Positions 1 through 55,178 of a stretch of DNA of 64,000 bases are shown piece by piece. Source of the stretch: Psammoneis japonica (taxonomy: Eukaryota); the NCBI GenBank assembly GCA_008632985.1, contig QPGO01000111.1:1-64000 (forward strand), in the 5' to 3' direction. Below the pieces are notes generated by a model. It made no database searches. It saw nothing but the letters and a program-made list of their open reading frames with translations, and was not told the DNA's origin. The position numbers and the translations under genes are program-made. How positions within the stretch are numbered: the first letter of the stretch is position 1; every line of letters begins with the position of its first letter.

Positions 1-3000
1 GCAGCTCAGTGACCAATTTGGGGTCCGCATCAAGTCCCACCTTGCTGACAACATCCCATTCAGCACCAAGGCTTTCATGGATGACCCAGAAGAAAACAAC
101 CAAACTGTTGATTTTTCTGGTGTTGGAGCTCATCATCAAAACAGCACAGCCGAGCGCTCCATCCAAACTGTCACCTCATGGGCACAAGCTGTGCTCCTGC
201 ATGCCATTCTAATGTGGCCTGATGCTGCCAATCTGGAGTCATGGCCTTTTGCCATGACCCATGCGACCTGCCTGTGGAACCACATCCCAAAGTCTGACAC
301 TCGTGCCGCGCCAGTTGAGATCTTCTCTAAGCAACGATTTGACACTCATGCGCATCTACAGTGCTTACAGGCATGGGGGTGCCCCACATGTGTTCTTGAT
401 CCTAAGTTACAAGACGGCAAGAAACCACCTGAGTGGGACCCCAGGAGTCACCGTGGCCAACATCTGGGCATCTCACCTGATCTTTCCACCAACATCGGCC
501 TCATTTTGAATCTGTCAACCAGCTGTGTTAGCCCTCAATGTCACATGGTCTATGACAACCACACTTCGCAACAGTTCCCAACAATGACTCCGGCGGCTTC
601 TTCCAGGATGTTCCCTTTGCCGCTGACCTTTGGGAATCCCTCCCAACCGCAGACTCGCCAGTGCACAATGCTCCGCCTGAGCCTTCCAATGCTTCTGATG
701 ACCCTTGCCATTGCTTGCCGGCCTTGCACAATGATTGGCTGACCCCCACTGAGTGCCGTCATTGCGCCACTCATCGACATGACCGCCATCAACGTCGTCT
801 CAAAAACTCCAAAACGGCCCCCACCGCCGAGCCTCCTTCAACCTCTTTCATCACAGCTCCAGAGGGTGAGCTTCCTGCTGCAACAAACAAATCATCAGCT
901 GACAATCTAGAATCTGCAACTTCAGAGGCTCCAGAGGGAGTCAAGATTGATGAGTTCAGCAATGACAGCGATGACGAATTGTCCCTCGTCAATCATCACG
1001 ACTTGCCTGAGGACCCAGACTTAGGCCCTGATGAAGCTGAGCCTCCACAACTGGCTCCAAATGCCACCACACTCCAACTCGGACTCAAAGTGGTCGCACC
1101 ATCAAGAAGCCAGATCTCTTGATTAAAGCAATGCATGCTGACATCCGCACTCCACCCAACAAGTCACCGAATGCTCATAAAAATCCAAAACGTTCCGTCA
1201 AGTTGGAAACACTGAACAAACAGTTCTTGATGGCCCTGCGTTGGGATGGCATCACCAACGCACTTTGGTCCAAAGACTTGCGCGCAATGCTCAATCTTTT
1301 CAACAAAAACACCAATCAAGTTCATGGCACACTCAAAGAAATGCATCCTCTTGCCCTCGCAGCTGATGCAAATTTGGCTGATGATCCAACTTGGGAAGAA
1401 GCAATGAGTGGCCCTGATCAAGCAGCCTGTCTGAAAGCTTGTGACATTGAAATGAACTCCCTGGTCAAAGGCAAGGATGCCTGGAAAGAAGTGGATCAAC
1501 AAGATTGGATGAATGTCCTGCCGTCCACTTGGGCCTTCAAGTGCAAACGATGCCCCGATGGGTCTATCCGAAAATGCAAAGCCCGATTCTGCATCCGCAG
1601 AGACAAGCAATTGGAAGGCGTTGACTGTTTTGATGCCTTTGCTCCAGTTGTCAATTGGACAACAGCATGGCTGATGCTCACACTTTCTCAAATTTTGGAG
1701 CTCTTGACAAAACAAGTTGATTGTGTCACCGCTTTTGTTCATGCTCCGATTGACAAGGATCCCAAATGGGGCACCATGACACCCAAAGAGCGGGAACGCT
1801 CTGGCATTTTTGTGCAAATGCCTTGCGGATGCTCCAAGCCCGGCAAAGTGCTGAAACTCAAACAAACCGTGCATGGTCTCAAACAAGGACCTTGCAATTT
1901 TTTCCTGCACCTTAAGTCAAAACTTGAAGATGCCAGATTTCAATCACAAGATGATGTTGATCCGTGTCTGTTTGTATCTGACAAAGTCATCTGCCTCACG
2001 CACATTGATGACACACTGTTCTTCTCTCTAAAACAAGAGCGCATCGACAAAGTGATCGAAAACTCAAAATTGATGGCGGTCTGGCCATCAAAGTTGAAGA
2101 TTCTGTCGCAGGTTTTTCAGGAGTCCACATTGAACGCGACACCGACAATGGCACTGTCAAGCTCACTCAAAGCGGTCCATCCAAATGTGTCGTCAAAGCC
2201 CTCAATGCAGGCCATCTGCCGAAGGCCCGAACGCCCACACTGGCTGCTCCCTTGGTCAAGGACACCAACGGAGACCCACCAAATGGAGCCCACAATCATG
2301 CCAGCATGGTTGGCATGCTTCAGCATCTCCAAGGCCATTCTAGGCCAGACATTGCCCATGCCGTTAGCTCAGCAGCCAGATTTGTTCATGGCCCTCATCG
2401 CTTGCATGAACTGGCCCTTGAACGGATCGGGTGACACCTGAAGGGCACTCTGGACGAAGGTTCAATCCTCAAGCCATCTGGGGACTTCAACATTGACGTG
2501 TTTGTTGACTCAGATTTTGCTGGACTGTGGCCGCACGAAGACAAGCATGACCCGGCTTGTGTCAAAAGCCGAACAGGATTTGTCACTTGCACCTCAAACT
2601 GTCCTGTCATTTGGTCCAGTGAGCTTGCACCCGAGATCACTCTCTCAACAATGGAAGCAGAGTGCAATGCTTTTTCCACTTGCATGAAAACTGTCCTTCC
2701 CTTTCTACGCACCGTACAAGCCATTTCTCAAGGCATTGGAGTTGGTCCAGGAACTGCCAAGACTGTCCGCACCATTGTGTGGGAGGACAATGCTGGAGCC
2801 TTGACTCTGGCTAATGTGGAACCTGGCTGAGTTACGCCTGGGTCCAAGCACTGCACAATCAAGCATCATTGGCTCCGTTCACAGCTCAAACCAAATTGAG
2901 TTGCTGTGTCCAAGATCGCAGTGGACTTGCAATGCGCTGACATTCTGACCAAAGGTCTCGTTGCTGTTAAATTCGAGGCTGTTTGAAAGTTGCTTTGCAG

Positions 3001-3459
3001 TTGGCAGCTTCTTCATTCAAGAGGGAGTGTCAACACAGCATGAACTCATGTGTGACATGTGTGTGCTATGCTTGCATGTGCGATTTCCTGCCATCGGTCT
3101 TTCTCAACTTTTCTCACAATTGCAACATCCAGTGTGACAAGACATTGGCAGCTTTGCCGATTGTGCCATCATCATTGGCCCACTTTGCCAGTGACACGCA
3201 TGCCATTCAACCTCAGTCAACTTCTCCTGACTCTCAGACGAGAGTTGTCGCAGTTTGTCGGTGTTTTTCAAAAGTCATTCTGTTTCTGTCTTGTCCGTTT
3301 GGCAGTCTGATTGGGTGTGTAATTGTGCACAAAACTGCGCAACATTTGTTTTTGTGACTGTGTGGACAGTTTTGAATGGAACATGTGTCAGAGACTTTTC
3401 GATGGAAATGTTTGCCTGCATCATTGTTTGTGAATAAAATGAACAGAGGCACATTAACA
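1..3459 (+). mobile_element. Degenerate Ty1/copia LTR retrotransposon (CoDi-like): 3' part with integrase core, RT, RNase H, PPT and 3' LTR; 5' part lies outside the window
   Basis: Integrase core (GVGAHHQNSTAERSIQTV...WPFAM...WGCP...LQDGKK...WDPRS) at ~77-560. RT (VLPSTWAFKCKR.PDG..RK.KARFC, APVVNW, HGLKQ, DPCLF, HIDD for YxDD) at ~1380-2030. RNase H (VDSDFAGLW...KSRTG...LSTMEAE...WEDNAGA...ADILTK) at ~2490-2990. The IN-RT-RH order is copia. Frameshifts and stops are present. Confidence 0.93.
3028..3459 (+). repeat. 3' LTR of the copia element
   Basis: Follows the polypurine tract AAGAGGGAG (3019-3027). Begins TGTCAA and ends TTAACA, consistent with an ancestral TGTTAA...TTAACA inverted terminus carrying one TA->CA change. 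The partner LTR is not in the window, so the 3' end is inferred. Confidence 0.7.
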
Positions 3460-3856
3460 GTTAGATAAAAACAAGTGTCATTGCTCCCAAGAGATTTCCT
3501 TGGTGATGGGAGGGAACACCGAGTCGCACGACTTGTTTTCGTGCAACTTTGGAGAAACCATCGACAGATTTAGCTGGAGGGCAGCCTCGCAAAGCCATGC
3601 GAAGTCCAATGAAGTCACGTCATTTCACCGATCACGCGACTTGCAAGCCAATTTTCAGCACTTGAAGTCATCTTCTCTCAGAACATTGGTGGCACATCTT
3701 CTGCGCAATCCTCTTGTGAGATGCTCGCACGACTTGTTCGAGAACCCTCAGCTCCAAAAAAGAAAAAAGACATCAACAGGCCATGAGATGCGGTGACACC
3801 TGCACCATGGCAGAGAAAAAACAACCTGTGGCTTTGCCAGTGCTCTTGATGCTCCA

Positions 3857-4704
3857 ATGCACCCAGACAAACTTGGTGTTGGAGATGAAAACTCTCCACC
3901 AACTGGGCATGCCGCTGGAGAGGAGGGTTGTGTTGATGGGGAGGAGATGCTTGTTGGGGTGAAGCCCTCTGCATGCAACAACATGGCTGACAGAGAACCT
4001 TTGTTGGAGGTTCCAAACATCCCAAAGGAGGCTGACATTAAGGCAACAGCTGGAAAGAGGCGCCTGCCAAACCTGACAAAAGAGGTCAACCAAGAGCTGT
4101 GTTGGGATCTCTTGACACTGATCAGCACGCGAAATGCCCACTTGCCAATGCCAGATGGTGAGAGCAATCAAAGATGGCAGGAGCTTTTTGACTTGTTCTA
4201 TGATCCTGTTAATGGACCAGCCAGAGGCTGCAGTGTGCCAGAGGCAGAAAGCAAAATTCACAATTTTCGCCAAGCAAACATCCGCAGAATTTGTGTTTTG
4301 GCCAAGAAGTGTGATGCAAAGGCGGGGAAAGGAGCTGACAAGGACGCAACAGGATGTGCGGTTCTGGCAAAGACTCTCCATGCAGCAAGGCTTTCGGCAC
4401 AGGCAGCAAAGAAAGATGAGACTCAAGAGGAGCGCGCAACAAAGCAGCAGCAAGAAAAGTGACAAACGAGAGGTGTGAGTTGGAGCTTGGTCTCACACCT
4501 CCAGCTCCATTCAATGGAGGCAAGCACTCAGCCCATGGCTGTGACGTTGAGCCAACCACAGTCACAACTGTTGGGCACCTGGATGGATCAGCAAGCGGAG
4601 ACTGTCGGTCAAGGGATTTTGTGAAGAATTTGGAGGATGCTCAGAAAGGGGCTGAATCCTTGTTTTCAAATCTGTCAAGTGGACATGGCCTTTGGCTCCC
4701 CTGA
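3857..4704 (+). pseudogene. Putative Harbinger accessory (Myb/SANT-like DNA-binding) ORF, degenerate
   Basis: ORF with LCWDLLTLISTRNAHL...NQRWQELFDLFY followed by a charged helical region. Its position convergent to the transposase fits the Harbinger two-gene layout. The family assignment is inference. Confidence 0.4.
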
Positions 4705-5039
4705 GCTGCAAGCATCCAAGAAGCGCAAGCTGGATGTGGGAACATTGCGGGAGCTGCACATGCTCAAGAGCAATGTGGAAAAAAGCTGAAAAGAGGGGAC
4801 AAGCGTCCAAGCGCTTTCTGTGGAGCCATGTCTGAGGAAGTTTTTTCGTCTTTGGGCAAAAAGCCTGCCAAATCCAATGCCACCACCAAACCATCCACAA
4901 AAAGAAGTTTCAAATGATTGGTTTCTTCCCATTGTTGGCTTGGATTTAATTGATGTTTGGCAAGTTCACATTCAGGTCAAACAGCATGTTTTCAATGGCT
5001 CATCTGACTTTGGCATGCGACCTGCAGGAAGCCATAAGA

Positions 5040-5800
5040 TCGGATGTACATCAGGTGTGAAAACAAAAGCAACACCATTGGAAAGCATTCGTTCTGTAGA
5101 TAAAAGTGTCGCCATTGATTGTTGCAAAACCACAAAACGCGCCAGGAATTTTGCACGCAACTGCGGGGTCGTTTGGATGCATGAATGCTGATTCGGTTGT
5201 GCTTGAGGTGTGAAAATAAAAGCAACACCATTGAAAAGCGCTCGCTCTGTAGATGAAATTGTTGCCATTGATTGTCCCATAATTCTGGGCACTTCTAAAG
5301 CAATGCCTGTTTGAGCAAAACGCACCAGGAATTTGGCGCGCAACTGCGGGGTCGTTTGGATGCATGAATGCTGATTCGGATCTGCCAAGGGTGTGGAAAT
5401 AAAAAAGATGCCATTAGAAAGCTGTTGCTCTGCAGGTGATCTTACTGCCATTGACTGTCCCACAATTCTGAGTGCTTCTAGAGCAACGCCTGTTTAAGCA
5501 AAACGCACCCCAGGATTTTGGCACGCAACTGCGGGGTCGTCCAGACATCTCGACGCCGATTCAGATCTGATGGGGGCACAGAAATAAAAAAGACACCATT
5601 GGAAAGCTCTTGTTCTGCAGACAATGTTGCTGCCATTGATTGTCCCACAATTCCAATTGCTTTTAAAGCAATGCCTGCTCAAGCAAAATGCACAATGATT
5701 TTGGCGCGCATCTGCGGGGTCTTTTGGACACGTCGTTGACAATTCCAATCTGCTGGAGGTGTCGAAACAAAAACGCACCTTTGGAAAGTGCTAATTCTCT
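5040..5800. repeat. Tandem array of ~183-bp units (4 full, 1 partial; first unit internally deleted)
   Basis: Units start at about 5040, 5193, 5376, 5561 and 5743 and share GCCATTGA(T/C)TG and CGCAACTGCGGGGTC. The period is a multiple of 3 and the - strand translates to a repeated 61-aa peptide. Confidence 0.9.
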
Positions 5801-6209
5801 GGACAATCAACACAAACTGTAAAATGTGTTTGTGTTGTTTGCTGCAGGTGCTCTTCGACCGTTGGTGGCAAAAGGCCGAAGGTGCCAATGCTGCCAATTT
5901 GGTTGTGATTGAAACAAGTGCAGCAATTGGCTGGCAAAAATGAAACCCTCAATTGCTCACATGCATGTGGATGCTTGCAACACAGCTTCCAATCACTGAA
6001 TGTGCAACACACCCTGAACAGATTTGCTGCCACACCACAACTCCACTCAACTGCAGTGCAAACGCATTTCATCCAAAAATTCTGTAGAACTTGGATTGGT
6101 GCAAGCGGGGCACCTTGAGCAGGTCGATGCGCCTGTCTGACACATTGCCATTTGGAAACCAGCCTTGTTGGAGCTGCAACAAGCAGTTGCCAATGCCGCT
6201 GAGTTCTTG

Positions 6210-6641
6210 TGCAGCATGCCTCGCTGCTGGACAACACGGCGAGACCGTGCACAAGCCTCTTGCACGTGGCAACGTGGCATTGTTGACACGCACCTGGGAA
6301 GCACGACCACAGGAGGGCGTGGCTCTAGGTCTCAGGCAATTCCAGAAGGATGCTGAGAGAGCATCCGTGTGAAGCACACTGGCCCATCGTCTGGCCCACG
6401 ATGGCAGCGTGATTCCACACGATGACATCACTCGTGCATGGCGCGTGATGGCTTGATTTGCACGATCCATGATGCGAATGCACGATCGATTTGATGCGAT
6501 CCAAATGCAAACGAACAGGGATTTGGCAAGATTCCCCATTCACACGATCCCATTTTCTCTACTCTAAACTGGCTCACAATTTTCACAACGACAAAGTCGC
6601 AACACATCTTCTTTTTCAGCGCCCAGCACATGCACAGGGCA
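6210..6641 (+). repeat. Gypsy 5' LTR
   Basis: Direct repeat of 10687-11118 at a constant offset of 4477. Confidence 0.93.
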
Positions 6642-9600
6642 CAGCAATGTCACTCCCGCACATTGTGCGAGGTGACGAAATCTACAGAAATGAAACTACG
6701 AAATGTTGGTGGGACCGACAAATCTTAAAATGACCATGAAGAAGCAGATTGAGCTGCTGATTCCGTTCGCATGGCCGGAGAAGAAAGAGCTGCAGCAGGG
6801 CGAGTGCCAGACGTTCAAGCTGCGCAACAACCCCACTGATCCGGACAGTCCAACGCACGAGATGGGCATTCCGCACCTTTCTGTGGCTACATGCGAGACA
6901 CTCCTGATCTTTCTGCAACAACGTGGATCACGTGCACGAAGGACAAAACATCACGACCGGGCCAGCGAAATTTGCCCTCATGCGTGACCCACTGCAGGGC
7001 GATGCTCTGACGTCATTTGACAATGCCGCTGACAAGCAGGCATCCCAAACCAACGCCACATGCGCAGCATGCATCACGAAGCTAAAGGAAAGTGTCTTCC
7101 CACATGGGGCGGTGCTGTTGCAGAAGCGTTGTCTGAGGCGCTTCATGCGCAAGCCCACAGAGGTTTCCACTCGTGACTGCATCGCGAGGGCTGTTGAAAT
7201 TAACGGCTGCATCTCTCAGTTTCCACCCGTGACGGAGGATGGAGAAGCACCGGCACCATCACCTGATGACGAACTGTGCGACATGTTTGAGTGCGGTGTG
7301 CCGAACGCATGGCAGAAGTTCATGACGCTGCAGAATTTTGACCCGTTGGCGCATGCTGTCGCCGAATTTGTGCAGTTCTGCGAGCGCACCGAGCAGGTCG
7401 AGCTTGCCGAAGGCAACCGCGACCAAAATGCCAGGGTTCTACATAAGCGGGGATGTAGAACGGACAATTCTGAGTCATTGATCATGACCCAACCGAACAC
7501 CCACGTGAGACGTGTCAAGACTGGACATTCCAGCAACGGAGGCAGCAAGCCCAACACAAAACCTCGGAATGAGGAAGATGTCAATGCTCTCATCGGATCG
7601 AAGGTCAAGGAGTTCTTTGCCAACGCTCAGAAAAAGCGCAAGGCACGCGAGGAGGAGCTTGATCACTTCCGCGACCTCAACTTGAGTGATTCCGAAGATT
7701 CGGGCGCTTGCCGACACGACACAGGCAGTTTTAACACATTGGGTGAATGCACAAATGAACAACTGAATTGCCATCGTACACGTGTTGTAGGCCAATCCCG
7801 CAAACGAGTTAAAAAGACTCATCTCACTCCAATCTTGTTCACAGCTGTGAATGCTAAACATGGCAAGGGCAAGACTCAAACCATTAAGGCACTGCTAGAT
7901 AGTGGCGCCAGCAGTGCTCTACTCGACAGTCGATACTGTAAACGTCTGCGAAGCCATTCAACGGCTGAGACAAACTGGACTACGGTAGCAGGCTCGTTCA
8001 GTACGTCTAACGACTGTACCGTTAAATTTTGGTTACCAGAATTATCCGAAACTGAAGAACTTAAACTACCGTCCACGTACACAACGGAAAGTTGGGCAAG
8101 TACGATATGATTATTGGACGTGACATTCTGGAGACACAAGGCATTGATATTGTCTTCTCTAAACAGATGATAGAGTGGCCATTAGTCAATGGAGAAGTGC
8201 CAATGAGGCACGTAGATGCTACGGTAGAAACCTCCTTCTACCTTCAAGATCCAGAAGCCTTATCTTCGGAAACCGACCGGATTTCGTATTTTAGACGCTA
8301 AGTACGCGCCGGCCTGCCTCGAGGACATAACGCGAGAGGCAATAAGACTTTCTATAGTTCACTAAAATGACCTTTTGGCACTATTGAAACGCCATGAGTC
8401 CTTATTTGATGGGACATTAGGAGAATGGAAGGGAGAACCCTACCATATCCAACTCAAGGAGGGTGTAGAACCATGCCACGCTCGTCCGTATAAAGTACCT
8501 CGTGCGTACGAAGCTACGCTACGTAAAGAAGTAGAACGCCTAGTACGTATCGGTGTTCTCAAACGCGTTAACCGATCCCAATGGGCAGCTCCATCATTTA
8601 TCATACCGAAGAAAGATTTAACGGTACGCTTTATTAATGATTTGAGAGAGCTGAATAAACGGATCAAGCGATTGCCTTGTCCGATTCCTCACATCCAAGA
8701 TATGCTACTTAAGCTCGAAGGCTTTATGTGGGCTAATCGCTGGATTTAAATATGGGCTATTATCACGTCCGATTGGATGCTGACAGCAAGAAGCTCTGCA
8801 CGCTCATCTTCCCGTGGGGCAAGTATGAGATGCAGGTATTGCCCATGGGATTATGTAATTCGCCAGACATTTTCCAAGAACGCATGTCAGGCTTATTTGA
8901 AGATCTATCGTTCGTTCGAACGTACTTAGATGACCTTCTCGTCGTGACGAAAGGCACCTATGAAGATCACCTCAACAAACTTGAAGAAGTTTTATTGAGG
9001 GTCCAGAAAGCAGGACTAAAAGTTAACGCAACTAAATCTCACTTCTGTCAAACCCAATTAGAACACTTGGGTTGTCTGGTCAACAGAGACGGAATACGAC
9101 CAATACCTAATAAAGTCGACGCCATTAAGCGAATCGCGACCCCAACCAATAAACGCGACCTTCGCTCATTTATTGGTATGGTGAACTACTACCGCGACAC
9201 GTGGATAAGACGTTCTGAAGTCTTGGCTCCGCTAACACGACTCGTAAGCGAGACTGTTAAGTGGGAGTGGACGTCCGTTGAAGACGAGGCGTTCGAAACC
9301 GTTAAACGGGTGACATCGGATGATGTTTTATCATCACATCCTGATTTTAACAAACCCTTTGAGATGCATGCCGATGCCTCTAAATGTCAATTGGGAGCAG
9401 TTATATCCCAAGATAATAAACCTGTCGCCTTTCCATCGAGTCGTCCTTTGCATGAAGCTTTTAATGCAGACGCGCAAGATGAGATGTCTCTGCCCATTGG
9501 CTTCAAGCGCATTCAAAAAGCACAACAAAAGGACAAGCGCCTGCTCTCACGAGCCAAGGACTCGTCCGACTGCTCCATTCGTGCGTGTCGTGGGGGAGGG

Positions 9601-10686
9601 TCATCACGACAGTTGATCTGTCACAAGGACAAAATCGTGGCACCACAGTCATTGCAGGTTCCGCCAACTGAATGGCGCCACGAGACACTGTGTCATCCAG
9701 GTGAGACACGTGCGGAAATGTCTGTTGCCCAGCACTTCTGTTGGCCTGGTGTGAGGTCTACGGTGCATTCTACGTGCGTCAAGTGCGATCGATGCCAGAA
9801 GACAAAACGCCGAACGCAGCATCATGGGAAGCTGCCAGAAAAGGTCGCCGAGACAATTCCATGGGAGACTCTGTGCATGGACATGATGGGGCCATGTAAA
9901 ATTCAAAGACGCGGAAAGGACACTTTGCAATTGTGGGCAGTCACAATGATTGACCCAGCAACCGGGTGGTTCGAGATTGAAGAAGTGTCTGCGAAATGCG
10001 CAGACGTCGCAGCAAACGTCGTGGAACAAACGTGGCCATGCAGACATCCGTGGCCAACCCAGGTGGTTTATGACCGTGGGACAGAATTTGTGGCAGAATT
10101 CACATTTAGCCAGATGATTAAAAATGACTGTGGGATTTTGAAGAAACCCACAAGTGAGCGAAATCCACAGGCGAATGCCACAGTGGAACGTGCACACCAG
10201 ACACTTGGCAACATGGCACATTCCTTTTCAGCGCAGGACATGGAACTGGACGAAGATGACCCATGGAGTGGCATCCTCTCCGCAGTGGCCTTCGCCATTA
10301 GAGCCACGGTGCATGCGACCACGCGTGCAAGTCCCACGCAATTGGTCTTCGGACGCGATGCGGTTTTGTCTGTTGCCCATCGTGCCAAGTGGAAGCACAT
10401 GGAAACCAGAAAACAGAAGCTCATCCAATTAAATGACAAGCGTGAAAATCAGAAATGCAAGGAGCATCAATGTGCCGCAGGGCAATTGGCACTTGTCAAA
10501 CAGGAACAATCCTCTAAACGCGGTTCTGACAGCTGTGCAGGACCCGCCAGAGTTGTCCGTGTGCATGACAATGGCACATTGCGTGTCCAGAACGGAGTGC
10601 TGACAGATGCGCACAATCTACGGCAGATTGCACCCTGTCACCAGCAAGACATCCTGTCACTTGACGGCCCTGATCATGGGGGAGTG

Positions 10687-11118
10687 TGCAGCATGCCTCG
10701 CTGCTGGACAACACGGTGAGACCGCGCATGAGCCTCTTGCATGTGGCAACGCAGCATTGTCAACACGCACCTGGGAAGCACGGCCACAGGAGGGCGTGGC
10801 TCCAGGTCTTGGGCAATTCCAGAAGGATGCTGAGAGAGCATCCGTGTGAAGCACACTGGCCCGTCGTCTGGCCCACGATGGTGGCGTGATTCCACACGAT
10901 GACATCACTCATGCATGGCGCGTGATGGCTTGATTCGCACGATCCACAATGCGAACGCACGATCGATTTGATGCGATCCAAATGCGAACGAATGGGGATT
11001 TGGCAAGATTCCCCATTCACATGATCCCATTTTCTCTGCTCTAAACTAGCTCATAATTTTCACAACGACAAAGTCGCAACACATCTTCTTTTTCAGCACC
11101 CAGTGCATGCGTGGGGCA
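10687..11118 (+). repeat. Gypsy 3' LTR
   Basis: Follows the PPT; direct repeat of 6210-6641. Confidence 0.93.
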
Positions 11119-12400
11119 CTTGAAGCCTTGAATCAGCTCTGAGCAGTCAAAGGGGAAAGCGACATTTATTTCAGGTGTTTTCATGTGACTCATTGGCACA
11201 CACAAGATCGCTGCTCACCTTCCAGCTGACACTGGCCCCACACAATTGAGACTCCATTTGGCAAGGAGATGCTGAGGACCTTTGTGCCAAGAAATTTTTT
11301 TATGCCACGTGTGCACTGACCGCTGCACGTCACAGGCGTTTGGCTTTCTAGGTGCATCGACCCAATCTCCAATGGGACCTGTTCCTGGGGTCTCCATCTC
11401 AAAGATGGAGCAGTCCATGAATCCAAGCATGTTGAATGCACCATTTGCAAACCACAAACCTGGCAACAAATGCTGCACTTGATTCAATGGATTTGTCCAA
11501 TGTGAAGGTGTGGCCAATTTTTGTTCAATTGCAGCCACAAATCGTGGAAAGTCATCCACCCATCGCTCAAGACTGTTTCTGTCCAAGAGGTGCCCAAACC
11601 AGCGCTCAGTGCGCCAAAGGAACCAAGGGTGTCCACGCGACCACCGCTTGGTGTTGCCACCAAAGAAACCTTCACACAATCTGACGTTGTCGAGTCCAGT
11701 CACAATCTTTGTCAAAGAAAACAAAAAGAGCTCTTCACCTCCAAACACACACACTTTGTTGCCAGCTGCTGGAACTCTCATGGCTTGTGGCAGACCAAAA
11801 AGCACACACAGGCGGTGCACCTGCTCATGGTCAAACTGTGTGCAAATCCTGAGCCACGCATTGGAGCAGTTGTCAATTAGCCTGTGTCTAACTCGCTCAA
11901 AGCTTGGATCCATTTCAAGCTCTTCTTGGAATGGAATGTCAGCAAGGGCTGCATCTTGCCTCGCCCAATGATCTGCAAGATGACGACACGCAACCAAAGC
12001 TGTCAACGAGCAAGCCGCACCAAAATTGAAGGGTTGTTCATCGTCCAATTCTTCTCCCAAATCCAAATCTGCAAGGTCATGCTCATGATTGATCAGAAGA
12101 AGAAAAATGGCGAGAAATGCCGTCCAATGAATGACTCCTTTCAAGGATGTGGACCAAAGCAAATGGCAAGCACGCAACAAAGATTGACCACCGGTGGGAA
12201 GCGCATGATTTCTGCACTGGCAAGGAGTGTGCCTCATTGCAGCACGGCGGCGATGTCCATTGTGGCGGTGAGGAACCCTTGGCATTTCCACTGCAGCTGT
12301 TTTGTTCTTTCTCCATTTTGCACTTGCTGGTTTTGCAAACGGGAAGCCGCTTCGAACAACCCACATGACATGGTTGCTGCTCTTGTCGCATGACTTCGGA

Positions 12401-12978
12401 GCTTGCGGCTTCACTTGAAGAGATGATGACGTGCACCCGCGGTTGGTGGTGTCTGCTGGGCGCAGACGAAATCACACCATTGGCTGCGAAGCAAACTAGA
12501 CAGCTTCCATTGTCTTGTTGCACCTCTGTGTCAATTCCCGTCTCTTGACAATTGTCAATTGCGGCCATTGATCAAACTGCATGACCTTTTTAAGACTCTG
12601 TGCGGGGGCCAACATCCACAGCAACGACTTCCGGGAACCCACCAAGAAGTCTGACGCAAGCATCAAAGAGCGCCGGGTTCCGACAAAATGTCCTCGATTG
12701 CAAACCGGCAGTTTGGGTGTCGTGTTTTTGGCAATGTTAATTGACTCAAGTGACTTGTCAATTCCAAAACTGCAAGGTAAGTGAGTGGTTTCCTCTGCTG
12801 CTTTTGTTTCTGGTGCAATGGCTGGTTGAACCCGGTCAACCGGCAGTCTACAATCACAACCTGGAATGACCACAATTGTTTCCTCTTGTTTGTCAAATGT
12901 GGTTCAAGTATGTTTAAGGGCATTAAATTGCTTCGCCGAACATGACAGGTCGAGCCCTGGACGTCGAACAAGAACACC
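12401..12978 (-). pseudogene. Decayed partial duplicate of the methyltransferase-like gene at 14729-15592, including its 3' flank
   Basis: Colinear with ~14641-15290, e.g. CCTCTGCTGCTTTTGTTTCTGGTGCAATGGCT and GACAAAATGTCCTCGATTGCAAAC. Has frameshifts and a deletion that removes the FLEIG SAM-binding segment. Confidence 0.9.
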
Positions 12979-13303
12979 ATGACTGCATGATGATTCGAAT
13001 CAAATTTCGGAAACGCAAGTCGAAACTCTGAACCGCGACCCACCCGCGACCTTACGAATCAAGCACGAATCAGCCGCGTACAGCAGTCGTACTTACAGTA
13101 GAACGTGCTTTCGCAGTACGCACGGTACATTTTCTGCATCTGATTGACATCCACGACTCACTTCCTGTCACAAAACCAAACACGCAACAGTACTAACGAA
13201 AATGAAAGACTGCGACGGGAATTAGCACATTTCCATATCCAAGAATAGAAAGAAAAGCCTTATAATACAACACGTTACTATAGCAACCAATTAAAGCAGC
13301 ATC

Positions 13304-14281
13304 ATGTCCCCAGATTCCAACAATCGATTCATATCTTGGTGCGCCTTGGCCGTCTCTTCTTCGGTATGTTTTCATGTTTCGCCGTTGGCGCGCGGATCAT
13401 GCCTTTTTGATTTAGTGTCACTGCAAACGTTGTGTCTCAATCTTTTGCAACATCAATTGGTTTGTCAATTCTGAATCATTTTGTGCTTCCTTGTTTCATT
13501 AAAGGTCGCCTTGATTGCACACACGACAACCGACTACGACTATGTCGATTCCGACATGGAGGGTTACCGGTACGGTTCGTCTCACAAGTGGGTCACCTCC
13601 GTGTGCGCCATTTCCTTGGGTATATCCTTATGTACCATTATGATACATTTTGTTCCCTCGTTCAACTTTGTCGGAGGACTCGGAGAACGCGTTGTGGCGT
13701 TATTTCTTACAATTTGTTGGGTTACCGGGCTTCCCGTGATTTTGAACCCCGACAACGATATTGCCGCGAACGAATTCGGGACACGCAACGACGATCTCTA
13801 CTTTTCGTCATGGGCTGCCTTTAGTACAGCTTTCTACATTGCCATAAGTCTGGTGGCAAAGGCTGTGGTGGGTGTGTCGACGGTTCCGAGAAAGACCTGG
13901 CTGTGGGTGACGCTCTTTGTGGCGTCCGTGGTTGTCATGGTGGCCAGCTCAAGAGACTTTAAATGTTTTTGTGACGGTTTCAATTCCAACGAGTGTGAGC
14001 GGATTGTATTTGGCGTTAGCCTTGGAGCAGTTGGAACCGTGTTTGCCTTGGCCATGTCTCTGTTGACATTGAAGGACAGAATAGACCTAATTGGCGAGTC
14101 TATCATGTCGGTTTTGCTCCTCGTCATGTACAGCTTTGGTGTCGGTTTCATAACATTTGAGCCGCTTGGCAATTTGTATTTTGCGACATGGGGCGGCTTT
14201 ATTGTGGCCATGCTTTTAACAGCTGGTTGCGTCGAGCAGCGCTTTTTTTCAGACGATGATAGTGAGAGTACGGGTACGTGA
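13304..14281 (+). CDS. Multi-pass membrane protein, two exons (intron 13364-13504)
   Basis: ATG at 13304 (MSPDSNNRFISWCALAVSSS), in-frame GTATGT...AAAG intron, about 8 hydrophobic helices with an internally duplicated LYFSSW/LYFATW motif. Confidence 0.8.
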
Positions 14282-14728
14282 CTGTTTCGCGATTTTGATG
14301 CTTTTCTCCAAGTGTATTGTACGCCTTTCCTCACTACGTTTTTTCGTGCTATTGAACGATTGATTCTTAGCACACCTGAAAACAGACCCAGAATCGCAGC
14401 GAGTGGAGGATATACCCAAGGCCTAAGACAACGGAGACTACTGTATAATATTAACACATATGGGTTGGTGGTTTATCCCTCCCTACTAGAGGTACCGGTA
14501 GATTCACAAGTAGCTTTCGTGTCCCTCTACCGGTAGACACGCTACATGTTCACCACTCTAACCTACATGAAGTACGAGTTCATACATCAGTAGCTTTCGT
14601 GTCCTTCATTTATTTAACCCACTGAAGAATAAAAGTACACAGTTACGGCTTGATCAAGCAAGGAGTGGCGGCTTAGTGCTGTCTGCTGGACACGGTAGAA
14701 ATCACATTGGCTCCGCCGCACACTCGCG

Positions 14729-15592
14729 TCAATTGTCCAGTTGTACCTCCGCGTACAATTCCCGACTCTTGACAATGATCAATCGCGGTCGCTGATCAAA
14801 CTGCATAATATTTTCGAGACTTCTTGCTACGGGAAGCAAGTCTCGATTACCACCAATGTCCATGGCAACGACTTCCGGGAACCTACCAAGGAGTCTAACG
14901 CAAGTATCAAAGAGCTTGTCGGGTTCAGACAAAATGTCCTCGATTGCAAACTCGCAGTTTGGATATCGAGTCTTGGCAATATCAATAGACTCGAGCGACT
15001 TGTCAATCCCTAAACAGCAAGGTTTGTTATTTACAGCATCCTCCTCTGCTGCTTTTGTTTCTGGTGCAATGGCTCGTTGAACTCGGTCAACCAGCGGTCC
15101 GTAGTCACAACCAATCTCTAAAAAGCATTCACCTACACACGCATGAACGACAGCAGCCCTTCTATACTGTGGGGTTTCTGGAATGACCAACACAATTCCC
15201 TCTGGTTTTGTCAAGTGTGGTTCAAGTACGGGTATTAAATTGCGGCGTCGAACACGATAGGTCGAGCCCCTTGGATATCGAACAAGGACTCGACGAGTCT
15301 CGTTATTCATATCGCTTCCTTCTTGTTCGTCGTCATCCGAAACGACTCGTGCTCTCATGAATAGCTCACTTCTCGAGTATTGTGCAGTATCATTTGTCTT
15401 AGCATGCCTTTTTGCTTGACCCTTGCTCTTCAATACCCAGCAGAGTGTTTCTGGAGCAAGTCGAGGCGATGGGAAAATTGTGCTCTCCAACTTGTCTTCG
15501 AGAATATAGCGATACGACTGTGGATGCACTGATGACGCATGGCGAGGCTGAGGCAAGTCAATAGAAGACGCACGGTCGTCGCTCTTGCTCAT
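14729..15592 (-). CDS. Class I SAM-dependent methyltransferase-like protein with a small N-terminal beta domain
   Basis: 287-aa ORF with motif I FLEIGCDYG, post-I LGIDKS, DIGGNR and PRLIIVKS. Confidence 0.75.
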   Translation of the reverse strand: MSKSDDRASSIDLPQPRHASSVHPQSYRYILEDKLESTIFPSPRLAPETLCWVLKSKGQAKRHAKTNDTAQYSRSELFMRARVVSDDDEQEGSDMNNETRRVLVRYPRGSTYRVRRRNLIPVLEPHLTKPEGIVLVIPETPQYRRAAVVHACVGECFLEIGCDYGPLVDRVQRAIAPETKAAEEDAVNNKPCCLGIDKSLESIDIAKTRYPNCEFAIEDILSEPDKLFDTCVRLLGRFPEVVAMDIGGNRDLLPVARSLENIMQFDQRPRLIIVKSRELYAEVQLDN

Positions 15593-15723
15593 TTTCGTGA
15601 CAGCTGTTGTGCGGTTTCAACATTGTCGCAAATTATGATGAGAAAAAAATGTGAGGCGAGAAAATGTGCGGTGTCTGTCCACCCATCCCACTTCGGCAGA
15701 AAAAGTGCCAATGGCGTTCGTCT

Positions 15724-27840: not shown

Positions 27841-28591
27841 TGTATTGAGAACGATAATGCGTCGTTTCGAAGCAAAATACGCCGATGAAATGAAGGGAAT
27901 GGTGGTATCAAATCGTTTTTGTGAAAAAGAGTGAGACCGGTTCGCTCAACTGCGTCGTCGCGTTTTGTCTCGTTGCTCGTTGCCGATCTTTCAGTCACAG
28001 TTCGATGCTAACGCCACCATTATGAAAAGCTTCATGTCTCTAGAAGAATTAAAACGATGGAATCTTTCGACCCCTGAGGCTTGAACATTCCTTTCAAAGA
28101 CAGCGATAATAACAAAATTCTTAACGATTTCTGAAGAATCAGGAATCTTAACTCTCTCATCGACAGAAATAGCTCCAGAGTCTTGGATTGCCGCCAACAT
28201 TTTTCGAAATTTTGGTCATCTGTGGTTTCAAATTTTCAAAGATTTATGCCCCACATTGAAAAGTGATCGCGGGAAACTCGTTGACAACTCCCAACAGGAT
28301 TTCATCACAAAAGACTGAGGCGCTTCGCAAGAGGCTCCATTGTTTCGATTCAAATGCGTAGAGACGAATATTGGCAATGGTTCTATGGCCAGTTTACACT
28401 CGCTGAGATCAACAGCGACGAATTCGGACGGCTCACAGCTCTCATCATTAACCAAGTCGTAAAAATTCATAGAGATAGGGTTAGGGAAAGCAGCAGGCAG
28501 CAGCTTGCATTTTGTGTGTTTTATGTTGTTGCGTCTCGATTACTGCCGACGCTAAAAACTACCACCAGTAATCGAGTGCTGCTAGTCAACA

Positions 28592-30178
28592 ATGACGAGT
28601 AGTAAGAAGCATTTTCTGTTACTTCTCGCTTCAGTATTGCTTCTCAGCCGAAACGCGTCTGCCGATACAGAAAACGATAAGTGTCCTTCGTCACTGCTGC
28701 ACTACGAAGAGTTTTACATCAACGGCACGTGGGTAAAGCCAGTGTCTCCGACGCCTACACTCCTCCCCGTTATCAACCCGTCAACTGCTGACCCTATTGT
28801 CTCGATATCGTTGGCAAGCTCACAAGATGTAGACGCGGCTGTATCAGCGGCACGCGATGCCTTTCCGTCGTGGTCTCACGAAACGACTGTGCAAGAGCGA
28901 ATTGGTTTTATCGAGAAACTGCTAGAGATTTACCTGGAACGGCAAGAAGAAATGGCTCAGTTGATTTCCATGGAAATGGGTGCTCCTATTGACATGGCTC
29001 GAGACGGCCAAGTAGGTTCAGGCGCCTATCACATTGAAGACTTTTTACGAATTCTCCACAACGAGGAGTTTGAGTTTGAACGGACGCTTCCTGGCGACGA
29101 TCCAGATGATCCAGCAACAAGGATATTCATGGATCCAGTGGGAGTCGTGGCCATGATTACACCGTGGAATTGGCCCATGAATCAAGTCACGCTCAAAGTC
29201 ATTCCCGCCTTGGCTGTCGGTTGTACCTGTGTTCTGAAACCATCCGAAATTGCGCCGCTCTCGTCCTTGTTGTTTGCCGAAATGATGCACGAGGCTGGTT
29301 TCCCGCCCGGTGTTTTTAATTTGGTCAATGGCGATGGAGAGGGCGCTGGAACACTATTGACAAGCCACCCATATGTAGACATGGTGTCCTTCACCGGATC
29401 CACGAGAGCAGGAAAGCTCATTACAAAATCCGCAGCGGATACATTCAAGCGAGTCAGCCTCGAGCTTGGAGGAAAGGGAGCCAATCTTATTTTTGCGGAT
29501 GCTCCAAATGTGTACGAGACGATTGAATACGGAGTGCATGGCTGCTTTGGGAACTCTGGCCAATCATGCAGTTCTCCATCTCGAATGCTGGTGGAACGGA
29601 GTATCTATGACAAGGCAATTGAGATTGCACAAGAGGTTGCAGAGGAGGTTGAGGTCGATTCGGCGGATAAAGAGGGCGACTTTTTGGGACCCGTCGTGAG
29701 CTTGCAGCAATGGGAAAAGATACAAAAATACATTGAAACTGGCATTGCGGAAGGAGCTCGGTTGGTGGCGGGTGGTTTGGGCCGGCCCGAGGGGACGAAT
29801 GGACGTGGGTACTTTGTAAAACCAACCGTCTTTTGTGACGTTGACAACAGCATGACGATTGCAAAGGAGGAAATATTTGGTCCCGTTTTGTCCATCATAC
29901 CGTTTGACACGGAAGAAGAGGCATTGGCCATTGCCAATGACACACCGTACGGCCTCACAAATTACGTTCATAGCATGAATGGCAATCGTCGAAGGCGTTT
30001 GGCGCGGCGTCTTCGTTCCGGTATGGTCGAAATGAACTACGAGGAGGGCGCAGATGGGTCGCCGTTTGGTGGGGTAAAGGCAAGTGGGAACGGTCGAGAG
30101 GGAGGAGTATGGGGAATGCAAGAGTTTTGCGAAGTCAAGGCCATCACGGGATGGTTTGACGAGGAAGACGCAGGCTGA
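28592..30178 (+). CDS. NAD-dependent aldehyde dehydrogenase with an N-terminal signal peptide
   Basis: ITPWNWP, KPSE, SFTGST, LELGGK, catalytic GQSC, EEIFGPV, PFGG.K.SG.GREGG. Intronless. Confidence 0.95.
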   Translation: MTSSKKHFLLLLASVLLLSRNASADTENDKCPSSLLHYEEFYINGTWVKPVSPTPTLLPVINPSTADPIVSISLASSQDVDAAVSAARDAFPSWSHETTVQERIGFIEKLLEIYLERQEEMAQLISMEMGAPIDMARDGQVGSGAYHIEDFLRILHNEEFEFERTLPGDDPDDPATRIFMDPVGVVAMITPWNWPMNQVTLKVIPALAVGCTCVLKPSEIAPLSSLLFAEMMHEAGFPPGVFNLVNGDGEGAGTLLTSHPYVDMVSFTGSTRAGKLITKSAADTFKRVSLELGGKGANLIFADAPNVYETIEYGVHGCFGNSGQSCSSPSRMLVERSIYDKAIEIAQEVAEEVEVDSADKEGDFLGPVVSLQQWEKIQKYIETGIAEGARLVAGGLGRPEGTNGRGYFVKPTVFCDVDNSMTIAKEEIFGPVLSIIPFDTEEEALAIANDTPYGLTNYVHSMNGNRRRRLARRLRSGMVEMNYEEGADGSPFGGVKASGNGREGGVWGMQEFCEVKAITGWFDEEDAG

Positions 30179-30379
30179 CTTTTTTTAATCAAACGTATTT
30201 GCGGAATGACATCCTACCTACTGAAAGTTAACTATTGCTTCAGGATCGCGCATACATTTTTGTTGATTGAGACTAGAACTTTCAAAGCCAATCTATTCAA
30301 CAAAAACATCGCTCGTATTTTATCGTGAGCGTTCGCTTGTTGGACATTCACCGAGCCATCGTCTACCACACTGTAGCTA

Positions 30380-32480: not shown

Positions 32481-32696
32481 CGACCAACAACGACCAACGA
32501 CGAGACGCACATTCCAATTCAACATGAGACAAAAAGACGCGACTGAAACTTTATGAACGTATTTAACTTTGAAGATTGATTATATATGAACATCCTCAGA
32601 TCTGAACAAACGATACATTTGGAACTTTGGAGCTTGCTTCCATTGTTCCACGCAGAAACAATGGCACAACTTGATCGAGAGCTTCATTGAACCGCC

Positions 32697-54100: not shown

Positions 54101-54950
54101 AAATTTCCAACACACAGTGGAGCAAGCACCACACATCACAAAACTTTCAAAAAGCTGTGTGTGGACCAGGTGCAACAACTCTCCTGCAAGACTGGCCAGC
54201 AGAAAAGACAGTGTTGTCATGCCAACACATTTGATGTGGGGAAGGCAACATGCATGTCCTGCATTGAACACCCATGTTGATTTTAGAAGAGGTTTGGACT
54301 GCCTTTGCCATGCACTCTGGCAGAGTCAGCCCTTGTGTGAACATCCAGAGGTGTGCGCACAAGGCAGCATCAACCACACTTCATCTGTGCTGCCTTCTTT
54401 CCTGACCTGCTCTCAACATGGAAGGTTTGCACCACTTCCCTGACTCGCCACTTGGGTCTGTGCCACTGGGTCTGTGCCTGCATGAGGCAACTCAGAGAAC
54501 AGCATCTCCTGTGCTCCACTGCAGTCCCAGTGCATTTGCCATGACACCCTTTGCTGCCTTTTGATCAGGTGAGAAGAGACCAACAGTGTTCTGTTGTGTG
54601 TGACACAAGGTTGAAAAAATGATGCATGCAACCACATGCACAAAGCTCATGCAAAGAATTGACAGTTTCTTTGCAGCTGCAACATCCCTCCCAAAAATGT
54701 GTCTAACCCTGATGCTCAATCCACAGCTCATGCCAAGCAGGAGTGTGCAACAGTGTGGATGAAGAGTGGGACAACACCAATGTGCCCAGCGATGATGCAC
54801 ACATGGCCACCATTCCTGACGCCAAAAAAACAACCAAGTGTAAATGAGACAAAATGTCGTCAATGCCACAAAAGCCAGACGTTTAACATGCCGTGGAGGA
54901 CAAGACGCCCTCCCAAACTCAGCGTCAAGAATTGCAGCATGCCTTCTGGC
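51200..54950 (-). mobile_element. Heavily degenerate DNA transposon relic, probably MULE/MuDR-like
   Basis: No intact ORF. Remnant peptides on - (QLPSEAVLV, GTCEQNN..SVAFVQS, HAVIP, IDGNNH..K) resemble a MULE DDE core. TpA and CpG are almost absent. No TIRs found. Confidence 0.45.
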
Positions 54951-55178
54951 TGTACCGGTAGGGACTCTAGAATGAAAAAGGCCAAGAGAGCCCTAGCCAA
55001 GTAAGCATCTGCATTAAAGACTGGGCGGAGTTTAAAAATAACCAACACAAGCACGATGCACTAAGCACACCTAGCAGCAGATAGGCTGCAATTGTATGGA
55101 AAGATTCGGTCGGTATCTATGCTTTGAATATCAAACTGTTGAAAGCCTCTTCACATTGTGTAGCCATAGCCTTATACC

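Follow-up and report, generated by a model that had tools for sequence, protein, structure and literature searches.

The closest described counterpart of the pattern that we report here comes from the chlorarachniophyte B. natans. In mutation-accumulation lines of this organism, 231 of 302 nuclear mutations fell within two integrated viral regions, and 230 of those 231 were A>G or T>C changes, all of them at TpA (210/211 in the nucleocytoplasmic large DNA virus (NCLDV) region and 20/20 in the virophage region; Mettrop et al., bioRxiv 10.64898/2026.01.13.699255). The TpA mutations arose at about 1000 times the background rate, in bursts that affected 11 of 15 lines with 2-45 mutations each, and TpA-poor clusters and coding sequences rich in CpA and TpG were enriched in reverse transcriptase (RT) and DDE domains; the authors' candidate is a DNA adenine deaminase of the ADAT2 type, and the portions of their text available to us mention neither diatoms nor trinucleotide context (bioRxiv 10.64898/2026.01.13.699255). 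Here, we analyze a stretch of 64,000 nucleotides of the diatom Psammoneis japonica (contig QPGO01000111.1, assembly GCA_008632985.1, positions 1 to 64,000; hereafter, the window), in which five tracts, including a copia relic and much of a gypsy long terminal repeat (LTR) retrotransposon, have lost nearly all of their TpA. The best explanation, and in our judgement a highly probable one, is a repeat-targeted A:T>G:C hypermutation of chromosomal DNA that is specific for TpA (and, within it, for 5'-TAY), of the same kind as that of B. natans.

Two other described processes act on repeats in the opposite direction. In ascomycete fungi, repeat-induced point mutation (RIP) introduces dense, dinucleotide-specific transitions into repeats in place, on both strands and with sharp edges, and its rate exceeds the background by orders of magnitude (for Neurospora, about 3.4e-6 per bp per generation according to the available part of PMC7296669); its changes are C:G>T:A, mostly at CpA, and they create TpA, AT-richness and stop codons in both copies of a duplicate. 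Decay of CpG carrying 5-methylcytosine (5mC) likewise affects silenced repeats at a palindromic dinucleotide, and its products, TpG and CpA, are the same as those described below. RIP requires a cytosine methyltransferase of the RID/DIM-2 type and is timed before meiosis. DNMT4 (RID-like) genes have been reported in many diatoms, as stated in the part of PMC9998398 available to us; nothing links these genes to the TpA signature.

Dinucleotides were scored as observed/expected ratios (O/E) in 1-kb and 250-bp windows, and tract edges were set from individual TpA positions. Five TpA-poor tracts were delimited in this way, with one unmutated island inside the gypsy element:

1 to ~7750, no strand: tract 1, TpA-depleted (7-10 TpA per kb, O/E 0.06-0.33), containing the copia pol relic, repeats without an assigned family (including a tandem array), the gypsy 5' LTR and gag
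2-3031, + strand: copia pol relic, located by tblastn with copia homologues
7777-9462, + strand: unmutated island in the gypsy element, spanning protease, RT and the first part of RNase H (66 TpA per kb, O/E about 1; TG and CA normal)
~9480 to ~12930, no strand: tract 2, TpA-depleted by TpA positions and dinucleotide profile, containing the gypsy RNase H remnant, integrase and 3' LTR, a repeat without an assigned family, and the mutated host-type copy 12439-12975
~30470 to 32550, no strand: tract 3, TpA- and CpG-depleted (TpA 2.9 per kb, CpG 19.7 per kb), with no Pfam, copia or gypsy match
~51210 to 54950, no strand: tract 4, TpA- and CpG-depleted (TpA 4.0 per kb, CpG 13.4 per kb), with no family match
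~62220 to 64000, no strand: tract 5, TpA- and CpG-depleted (TpA 3.4 per kb, CpG 16.3 per kb), extending past the end of the window

When the tracts were pooled and compared with the other DNA of the window, the counts (O/E in brackets) were as follows:

Pooled length: depleted tracts 18,804 bp; other DNA 45,196 bp
TpA: depleted tracts 118 (0.10); other DNA 1799 (0.58)
TG: depleted tracts 1853 (1.70); other DNA 3107 (1.15)
CA: depleted tracts 1995 (1.59); other DNA 3380 (1.15)
CG: depleted tracts 560 (0.47); other DNA 2514 (0.99)
TA+TG+CA+CG share: depleted tracts 24.1%; other DNA 23.9%

At host density, 748.5 TpA would be expected in the tracts, where 118 were observed (Poisson P = 3e-181). 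A preliminary description of this DNA had noticed that TpA is nearly absent from these tracts and freely used in the adjacent host genes; the depletion is confirmed here as real and far beyond chance. The same description had counted most of 1-12980 among such tracts; this stretch is not uniformly depleted, 7777-9462 being spared. TpA density drops from 39.8 per kb outside to 6.3 per kb inside the tracts, and the total of TA, TG, CA and CG stays constant, as interconversion within that set predicts. In 1-kb windows, the tracts hold 1-18 TpA per kb (O/E 0.02-0.33) with TpG and CpA O/E of 1.4-2.1, whereas the bulk of the window holds 21-74 TpA per kb (O/E about 0.4-0.96). The borders of the depletion are abrupt in 250-bp windows, and tract 4 begins ~30 bp past the end (51178) of a host open reading frame (ORF) of 1027 amino acids (aa). 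Unique DNA of the window, outside the tracts and outside ORFs of at least 150 aa, has a TpA O/E of 0.70 and a CpG O/E of 1.03, and the depletion is therefore not a general property of non-coding DNA; in host ORFs, the TpA O/E is 0.52. The tracts are slightly GC-richer than the rest (50.4% against 47.5%, +3 points). AA is not depleted (O/E 1.21 in the tracts and 1.15 elsewhere), and AA, AT and TT O/E are essentially constant while TA O/E falls 6-fold, from 0.58 to 0.10.

The loss of TpA does not follow the level of CpG. CpG O/E is about 0.05-0.3 in three tracts, about 0.5 in 1-6 kb and about 0.85-1.0 in the gypsy element, and TpA loss is near-complete in all five tracts whatever the CpG level. 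The depleted parts of the gypsy element hold 62-63 CpG per kb against 59 per kb in the spared island, that is, TpA is saturated there with CpG barely decayed. Surviving TpA amounts to 3.4 per kb in the CpG-poor relics and to 7-8 per kb in the younger tracts, with context classes alike; this density series does not tell a burst from a continuous process.

As for the identity of the tracts, tblastn searches of the whole window with 270 copia and gypsy homologues gave matches at 2-3031 (copia) and 7673-10695 (gypsy), and nowhere else. Pfam recognizes RVT_2 (copia RT) at 1041-2441 (E 2.8e-16), and RT, RNase H and integrase domains (Integrase_H2C2, rve) in the gypsy ORF 8737-10719. Stop-to-stop ORFs of the unassigned tracts matched no Pfam family at E<=0.01, with nothing credible at E<=5. 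The proposal that LTR, non-LTR and DNA elements had all been hit is thus borne out for the copia and gypsy LTR elements, while the non-LTR and Harbinger labels were not confirmed: the minus-strand ORF carrying 'VEWSCG' and 'EEHL' (5791-6324) has no Pfam match and no relative among longer proteins, which is weak evidence and leaves the Harbinger label unconfirmed, not disproved. Confinement to repeat-derived tracts, also proposed earlier, agrees with the sharp edges and with the multi-copy depth measured in 1-13 kb (see below); three tracts are without a family match.

The direction of the change is seen in tyrosine codons and in a pair of paralogues. The gypsy pol ORF was aligned to 60 homologues, and consensus-Tyr columns were scored. 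Not one of the 11 such columns in the depleted part of the ORF still holds Tyr; the residues are Cys in six (TGY), His in two (CAY), Arg in two (CGC) and Ala in one, whereas the TpA-normal part of the same ORF keeps Tyr at 6 of 10 columns (Fisher P = 0.004). Seven related metagenome loci keep Tyr at 176/199 (P = 4e-10 against the depleted part). The copia ORF contains 0 Tyr in 466 aa, compared with 2.7% Tyr in 100 homologues, and its four consensus-Tyr columns hold His (two), Cys (one) and Phe (one). Twelve of the 13 peptide strings put forward in the preliminary description as examples of such replacements were found where it had placed them; 'LHIDD' is absent, and the residues at that place are THIDD. 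The paralogues are the following:

12439-12975, no strand: mutated paralogue of 14668-15289, 75-77% identity, inside depleted tract 2
14668-15289, no strand: unmutated reference copy in TpA-normal DNA, within the minus-strand ORF 14729-15616, no Pfam match

The mutated copy of a host gene described earlier is thus real. From the 20 TpA of the unmutated copy, 2 are kept in the mutated one, 6 are now CA and 5 are now TG, while the other non-CpG dinucleotides are kept at 56-88%, the best-kept being AA (37/42). CpG is kept at 15/34 (44%), and 9 of the lost CpG have become TG or CA. A comparison of the depleted with the spared internal parts of the gypsy element gives, per kb, -58 for TA, +31 for TG, +41 for CA and +2.5 for CG; TG and CA are both gained, and both strands therefore contribute. 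Altogether, the Tyr codons, the paralogue pair and a gain of TG and CA that matches the loss of TA establish that the substitution is A:T>G:C at TpA, giving TpG and CpA, on both strands, as had been proposed.

The timing of the change can be read from the two LTRs of the gypsy element, as the two LTRs of one element are identical at integration. Here, they align without gaps and with 34 mismatch columns:

6208-6642, + strand: gypsy 5' LTR, 435 bp in gapless alignment to 10685-11119, 92.2% identity
10685-11119, + strand: gypsy 3' LTR, from the LTR pair alignment

All but one of the mismatch columns (33/34) are interconversions among TA, TG, CA and CG, where base composition predicts 56% (P = 7.6e-8). 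The site classes were counted as follows:

Differing sites: TG-vs-CA 9, TA-vs-TG 2, TA-vs-CA 2, CG-vs-TG 6, CG-vs-CA 5; other mismatch 1
Shared sites: CG in both 22, TA in both 1, TG in both 30, CA in both 44

A TG-vs-CA site results from one change in each LTR, starting from an ancestral TA or CG. Because the CG classes put the fraction of CpG mutated per LTR at 20% (c = 0.20), CpG decay predicts 0.69 TG-vs-CA sites, and 9 were observed (P(>=9) = 5e-8). CpG decay explains only about 0.7 of the 9 sites, and the remainder therefore derives from ancestral TpA that was resolved independently in each LTR. According to the fit, the ancestral LTR of 435 bp held 21 TpA, which is a normal density (48 per kb), and 86% of them were mutated in each LTR; essentially all TpA loss in the LTRs therefore took place after integration, in the chromosome, on either strand. 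Relative to background, the rate at TpA is about 1500 (range 270-59,000, set by a single background mismatch) and that at CpG about 170, with a TpA/CpG rate ratio of 8.7. CpG decay is active in the same tracts, as seen in the 11 CG-vs-TG/CA sites of the LTRs and in the CpG O/E of 0.05-0.5 of the older tracts. Thus, the TpA change arose on DNA after integration, and the nine TG-vs-CA sites show once more that both strands are hit. With the LTR pair, three explanations fall, namely RNA edited ahead of reverse transcription, errors made by the reverse transcriptase, and an element that is TpA-poor by its own composition; this is in line with the earlier argument for a change at the level of DNA.

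A-to-I editing of retroelement RNA by an ADAR-like or ADAT-like enzyme, or RT error, fixed through retrotransposition, would have left the copies TpA-poor at insertion. Known sites of A-to-I RNA editing typically have U/T on their 5' side, and both identifiable elements are retrotransposons; ADAR hyper-editing, in addition, gives A>G clusters in repeats, affects both strands of a duplex and prefers a 5' U. Nevertheless, such an origin is highly improbable. The LTRs differ at 9 TG-vs-CA and 4 TA-vs-TG/CA sites, fitting about 21 ancestral TpA; TG (+31 per kb) and CA (+41 per kb) are both up on the sense strand; and a paralogue fragment that is not a retroelement is mutated likewise. Moreover, the 3' preference found here is Y over G, the opposite of ADAR, which prefers a 3' G. 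ADARs are a metazoan family and act on RNA, whereas the change described here affects DNA after integration, the non-retroelement fragment included. RNA editing is refuted for the LTRs; in the internal regions, it could have played a part only on the condition that other copies have inherited the same TG/CA states from a common ancestor.

Survival of TpA depends strongly on the flanking bases. Compared with the expectation from the host DNA baseline, the surviving sites are:

ATAT: observed 0, expected 54
ATAC/GTAT: observed 2, expected 112
GTAC: observed 2, expected 71
CTAG: observed 7, expected 29
CTAA/TTAG: observed 27, expected 55
TTAA: observed 25, expected 40

The gap in survival between ATAT and TTAA is thus more than 30-fold. 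An additive two-strand model, with independent hits on either strand and a hit rate that depends on the base immediately 3' to the adenine, was fitted with the TpA contexts of either host DNA or 78 related elements as baseline:

Hits per strand at TAA: host DNA baseline 0.20; related-element baseline 0.63
Hits per strand at TAG: host DNA baseline 0.55; related-element baseline 0.90
Hits per strand at TAC: host DNA baseline 1.6; related-element baseline 1.6
Hits per strand at TAT: host DNA baseline 1.9; related-element baseline 2.0
Two-strand model, chi2 (6 df): host DNA baseline 5.1; related-element baseline 8.9
Uniform survival, chi2 (9 df), rejected: host DNA baseline 126.6; related-element baseline 70.5

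The target motif is therefore 5'-TAY (5'-RTA on the partner strand), with the order TAT >= TAC > TAG > TAA. The preliminary description had considered a context-independent A:T>G:C spectrum as an alternative to its own view, and what is seen instead is a strong dependence on di- and trinucleotide context. GC-biased gene conversion, or a general AT>GC mutation bias in repeats, would go with the slightly higher GC content of the tracts, but it has next to no credibility in view of an effect that is strictly context-dependent, leaving AA, AT and TT unchanged while TA drops 6-fold and spanning, among TpA sites, the range from ATAT to TTAA given above.

The same observations bear on error-prone patch repair by a Y-family polymerase of the Pol eta type, which the preliminary description had listed among its candidates. 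DNA polymerase eta makes T:G mispairs and is responsible for A>G changes at WA in immunoglobulin hypermutation, and the CpG lesions found in the same tracts could recruit such repair in methylated repeats. However, WA includes AA, whose O/E in the tracts is 1.21 vs 1.15 elsewhere; AA is also the best-kept dinucleotide of the paralogue pair, and the LTR mismatches, 33 of 34 within the TA/CG network, include no AA>AG change. Furthermore, TpA is saturated in the gypsy element, where CpG has barely decayed. We consequently disfavour this proposal as very unlikely.

A more serious alternative, and the main live one, is that a base modification confined to repeats and placed at TpA leads to the loss of TpA as a side effect, without any mutator dedicated to it and not through deamination of adenine. 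An example would be 5-hydroxymethyluracil (5hmU) or 5-formyluracil (5fU), made from thymine by a TET/JBP-type enzyme and mispairing with G; the loss would then be for TpA what CpG decay under 5mC is for CpG. In dinoflagellates, 5hmU is found mostly in TpA and TpC, and 5-formyluracil does mispair with G. Since TpA is palindromic, sequence gives no means of telling T>C at 5'-RTA from A>G at 5'-TAY; moreover, the 5mC-type CpG decay in the same tracts indicates that their chromatin is modified. Against this explanation, a rate ~9x that of CpG decay and ~1500x background is very high for a passive lesion, and the bursts seen in only some lines of B. natans suggest, from the available part of that preprint, a regulated activity. 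We consider it unlikely, although by far not negligible.

Copy number was estimated by placing k-mer contigs of the public run X1 on the window at a likeness of at least 80%, with depth taken as summed word depth:

Unique host DNA: word depth 60
1-6 kb: word depth 200-1100
Gypsy element: word depth 12,000-29,000
11.3-13.3 kb (11340-13340): word depth 200-300

The whole of the first tract complex examined (1-13 kb) is thus repeated, and the gypsy family has hundreds of copies. At 1514 places tallied out of 1553 difference rows, the window differs from other genomic copies by transitions in 81% (A>G 337, T>C 336, C>T 298, G>A 254); a spread over all four types is to be expected if the copies ended in TG or CA independently of one another. 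Two X1 contigs of unique depth match the depleted tract directly, at 3127-3763 (637/637 bases, depth 65.8) and at 436-934 (498/499 bases, depth 56.1). These contigs support the depleted sequence, which the preliminary description had wanted to see verified in raw reads, with the qualification that X1 may be the window's own sample. In the gypsy copy of the window, a frameshift separates ORFs 8366-8749 and 8737-10719; contigs with 2912/4001 of the depth from other gypsy copies carry an extra C at 8735, and many other copies may be in frame there.

These data also speak to whether the pattern is an artefact of assembly, polishing or base calling at modified bases, or belongs to a foreign family that is intrinsically poor in TpA. 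With hundreds of gypsy copies, collapse or chimeras are possible, and the spared island could be one; the sequencing platform of run X1 is also not on record. Yet k-mer contigs of unique depth reproduce the depleted sequence at 637/637 and 498/499 bases, the changes obey both codon logic (TAY to TGY or CAY) and LTR logic, and there is no gain of CG, as random strand-conflicting base calls would yield. Related elements, in turn, are not TpA-poor: 78 of 79 related gypsy loci have a TpA O/E of at least 0.57. Either version is therefore extremely improbable. Related elements with CpG O/E near 0 keep TpA (O/E 0.62-0.90) and Tyr (25-26 of 31), and CpG methylation or decay alone therefore does not bring about TpA loss. 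A short metagenomic gypsy relic, L044:1-1518, has a TpA O/E of 0.19 and a CpG O/E of 0.04, with 3 of 8 conserved Tyr kept and 2 Cys and 2 His; in a second metagenome contig, L017:251-1750, the 5' part is poor in TpA (O/E 0.13-0.41) and the pol next to it is normal, a partial pattern like that of the spared island. L044 thus carries the TpA-loss signature outside this window, and both loci suggest that it may be present in other organisms.

The spared island deserves separate attention. On the right, it ends where RNase H has lost about 72-74 aa, with homologue residues ~594 and ~668 joined at ~9433-9460, and its left edge (~7750) lies at the start of pol, within a continuous ORF. As an island of high copy number is spared, a simple rule by which a whole repeat or a whole domain is mutated fails, unless the island arrived later. 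Together with the unmutated paralogue, it further indicates that homology or copy number alone do not predict mutation, unlike in RIP. The island may have been brought in afterwards from an unmutated copy, by gene conversion or recombination; it may lie outside the reach of a guide; or it may be a chimera of assembly or polishing.

Taken together, dinucleotide, direction, products, timing after integration, participation of both strands, effect of the 3' neighbour, confinement to tracts and relative rates are direct observations, and on them the following course of events can be proposed for the hypermutation that we favour. In repeat-derived nuclear DNA, A:T would be converted to G:C at TpA in place, each strand being hit independently, so that a hit on the top strand would turn TpA into TpG and a hit on the bottom strand would turn it into CpA. 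Its rate is ~10^3 times that of background substitutions and ~9 times that of the CpG decay seen alongside it, so that saturation is reached while the LTRs are still ~99.7% identical at other sites; where a repeat tract ends, the process fades out over tens to a few hundred bases. The same tracts also undergo CpG decay of the ordinary 5mC type, a second and slower process. As for the chemistry, the likeliest would be that an enzyme, either a TadA/ADAT-like deaminase or another one with the CDA fold (HxE...PCxxC), deaminates adenine in DNA to hypoxanthine, an assignment that we hold to be quite possible, if somewhat short of probable. Chromatin marks or small RNA may guide the enzyme to silenced, cytosine-methylated repeats, and mobile elements would be disabled as a result. 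That the process is chromatin-targeted and serves as a genome defence, as the preliminary description had it, is what we infer from this pattern. TadA and ADAT2-ADAT3, whose activity on DNA is represented by amphioxus BjADAT2 and by engineered adenine base editors (ABEs), have in their favour an A-to-I deamination that gives A>G and a natural substrate with U/T 5' of the target adenine. The native context of bacterial TadA is UAC, which resembles TAY better than the GAA of the amphioxus enzyme BjADAT2. On E. coli DNA, BjADAT2 favours GAA as well as hairpin loops, and C at TCG is another of its targets, according to the available part of PMC10354150; the window, by contrast, shows no C>T at TCG other than what CpG decay accounts for. 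None of its 16 long host ORFs gave a match to a deaminase domain.

Several observations weigh against this explanation. Both the targeting and the chemistry are conjectural. Among natural eukaryotic ADAT2 enzymes, just one has been tried on DNA, and its preferred context is GAA and not TA, as given in the available part of PMC10354150. The paralogue at 14668-15289, only 2 kb from its mutated copy, is unmutated, and so is the 1.7-kb island at 7777-9462, although its copy depth matches that of its saturated flanks. Three of the five tracts, having no family match, are putative transposable elements (TEs). The context model presumes that ancestral TpA contexts were like those of host DNA or related elements. 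X1, whose platform is not on record, may come from the same sample as the window, such that the sequence is supported by a check that is not fully independent. Finally, TAA and TAG stops are removed and not created, which makes for a less efficient killing of genes than RIP achieves.

Compared with the described systems, the present case matches B. natans in every feature that sequence can test. As far as the available portions of that preprint go, both show A:T>G:C at TpA only, with TpG and CpA on the two strands, both are confined to foreign or mobile DNA in an otherwise ordinary genome, and both reach a rate of ~10^3 times background (here, LTR-based, ~1500). The differences lie in the host, which is a diatom (Stramenopila) here and a chlorarachniophyte (Rhizaria) there; in saturation, with a TpA O/E of 0.1 here vs 0.45 in the NCLDV region; in the substrate, LTR retrotransposons and unassigned repeats here and giant-virus and virophage inserts there; in the coincidence with CpG decay; in the TAY > TAG > TAA rule, which the available text does not report; and in the kind of evidence, which is evolutionary here and made of de novo mutations there. 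Our full-text literature searches found no report of a TpA-loss signature in diatoms and one report of the same kind anywhere, the 2026 preprint on B. natans; the novelty claimed in the preliminary description therefore stands for diatoms and was too high for the process as such. What is added here is a second lineage, the saturation of LTR retrotransposons, the LTR-pair proof of timing after integration, the co-occurrence with CpG decay and the TAY rule. In relation to RIP, TpA is destroyed here instead of created, GC content rises by 3 points, TAG stops are removed (TAA being a resistant context), and one paralogue and the gypsy centre are untouched where RIP would mutate both copies; selection or later arrival could explain these two exceptions. 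In relation to 5mC CpG decay, the target is TpA and not CpG, the change is AT>GC and not GC>AT, and it is ~9x faster.

Some further features of the window were recorded. Overlapping stop-to-stop ORFs of 120-418 aa without a family match lie on both strands at 3748-4640, 11215-12903, 30363-32556, 52044-54992 and 63230-63950; such stacks of long ORFs arise in the depleted tracts because TpA loss removes TAA and TAG stop codons. A tandem array with a 183-bp unit (3.2 copies, 78% matches by TRF) is located at 5133-5728, inside tract 1; columns with mixed TA, TG and CA exist among its units, and 32 of its 125 variable columns belong to the TA/TG/CA/CG network, but the end units align poorly and the array was not used as evidence. 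The + strand of tract 3 is purine-skewed at 30001-32000 (GC skew +0.365, AT skew +0.243), in which it differs from the other tracts; this may reflect the composition of the element residing there. Host genes of the window include one encoding a DUF6824 protein and an intronless gene for aldehyde dehydrogenase at 28586-30178 (+ strand). Protein clusters with DUF6824 belong for the most part to Bacillariophyta, with scores of 0.84-0.87 that amount to a lead. The best named eukaryotic relative of the aldehyde dehydrogenase is from Attheya (67% identity), the best match overall reaches 80%, and many Rhodobacteraceae-type bacterial proteins score nearly as high (63-66%); it may be a gene of bacterial ancestry in diatoms.

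For the annotation and dating of diatom mobile DNA, the consequences are practical. Mutated TEs evade homology-based repeat annotation, as in three of the five tracts, where no family is detectable, and the loss of TAG stops (TAA being resistant) produces long spurious ORFs on both strands of mutated TEs, where gene predictors are likely to call false genes. Dating by LTR divergence overestimates age unless TpA- and CpG-derived sites are masked, considering that 33 of the 34 LTR differences found here are of these types. In this genome, the decay of TEs raises GC content and does not lower it.

In its boldest form, the explanation favoured here would mean that diatoms possess a DNA adenine deaminase that is dedicated to this task and guided to its targets, in effect a natural 'adenine base editor' specific for 5'-TAY, which would be recruited to newly silenced repeats and would rewrite their TpA soon after insertion. 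Such a system would be an A:T>G:C counterpart of RIP, shared with chlorarachniophytes and possibly ancestral to, or widespread in, the group of Stramenopila, Alveolata and Rhizaria (SAR); we put this forward tentatively, as a possibility that has somewhat more to be said against it than for it. Some diatoms are genetically tractable, and the responsible enzyme could be sought by knockout in them; base-editing research would also have an interest in a natural enzyme that works on the adenines of nuclear DNA and has a defined TAY motif. Overall, the window would add to B. natans a second case, from a phylogenetically distant lineage, in which mobile DNA is hypermutated from A:T to G:C specifically at TpA. 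This would turn the curiosity of a single-species preprint into a candidate mechanism of genome defence or genome decay, and suggests that the process is widespread among marine protists.

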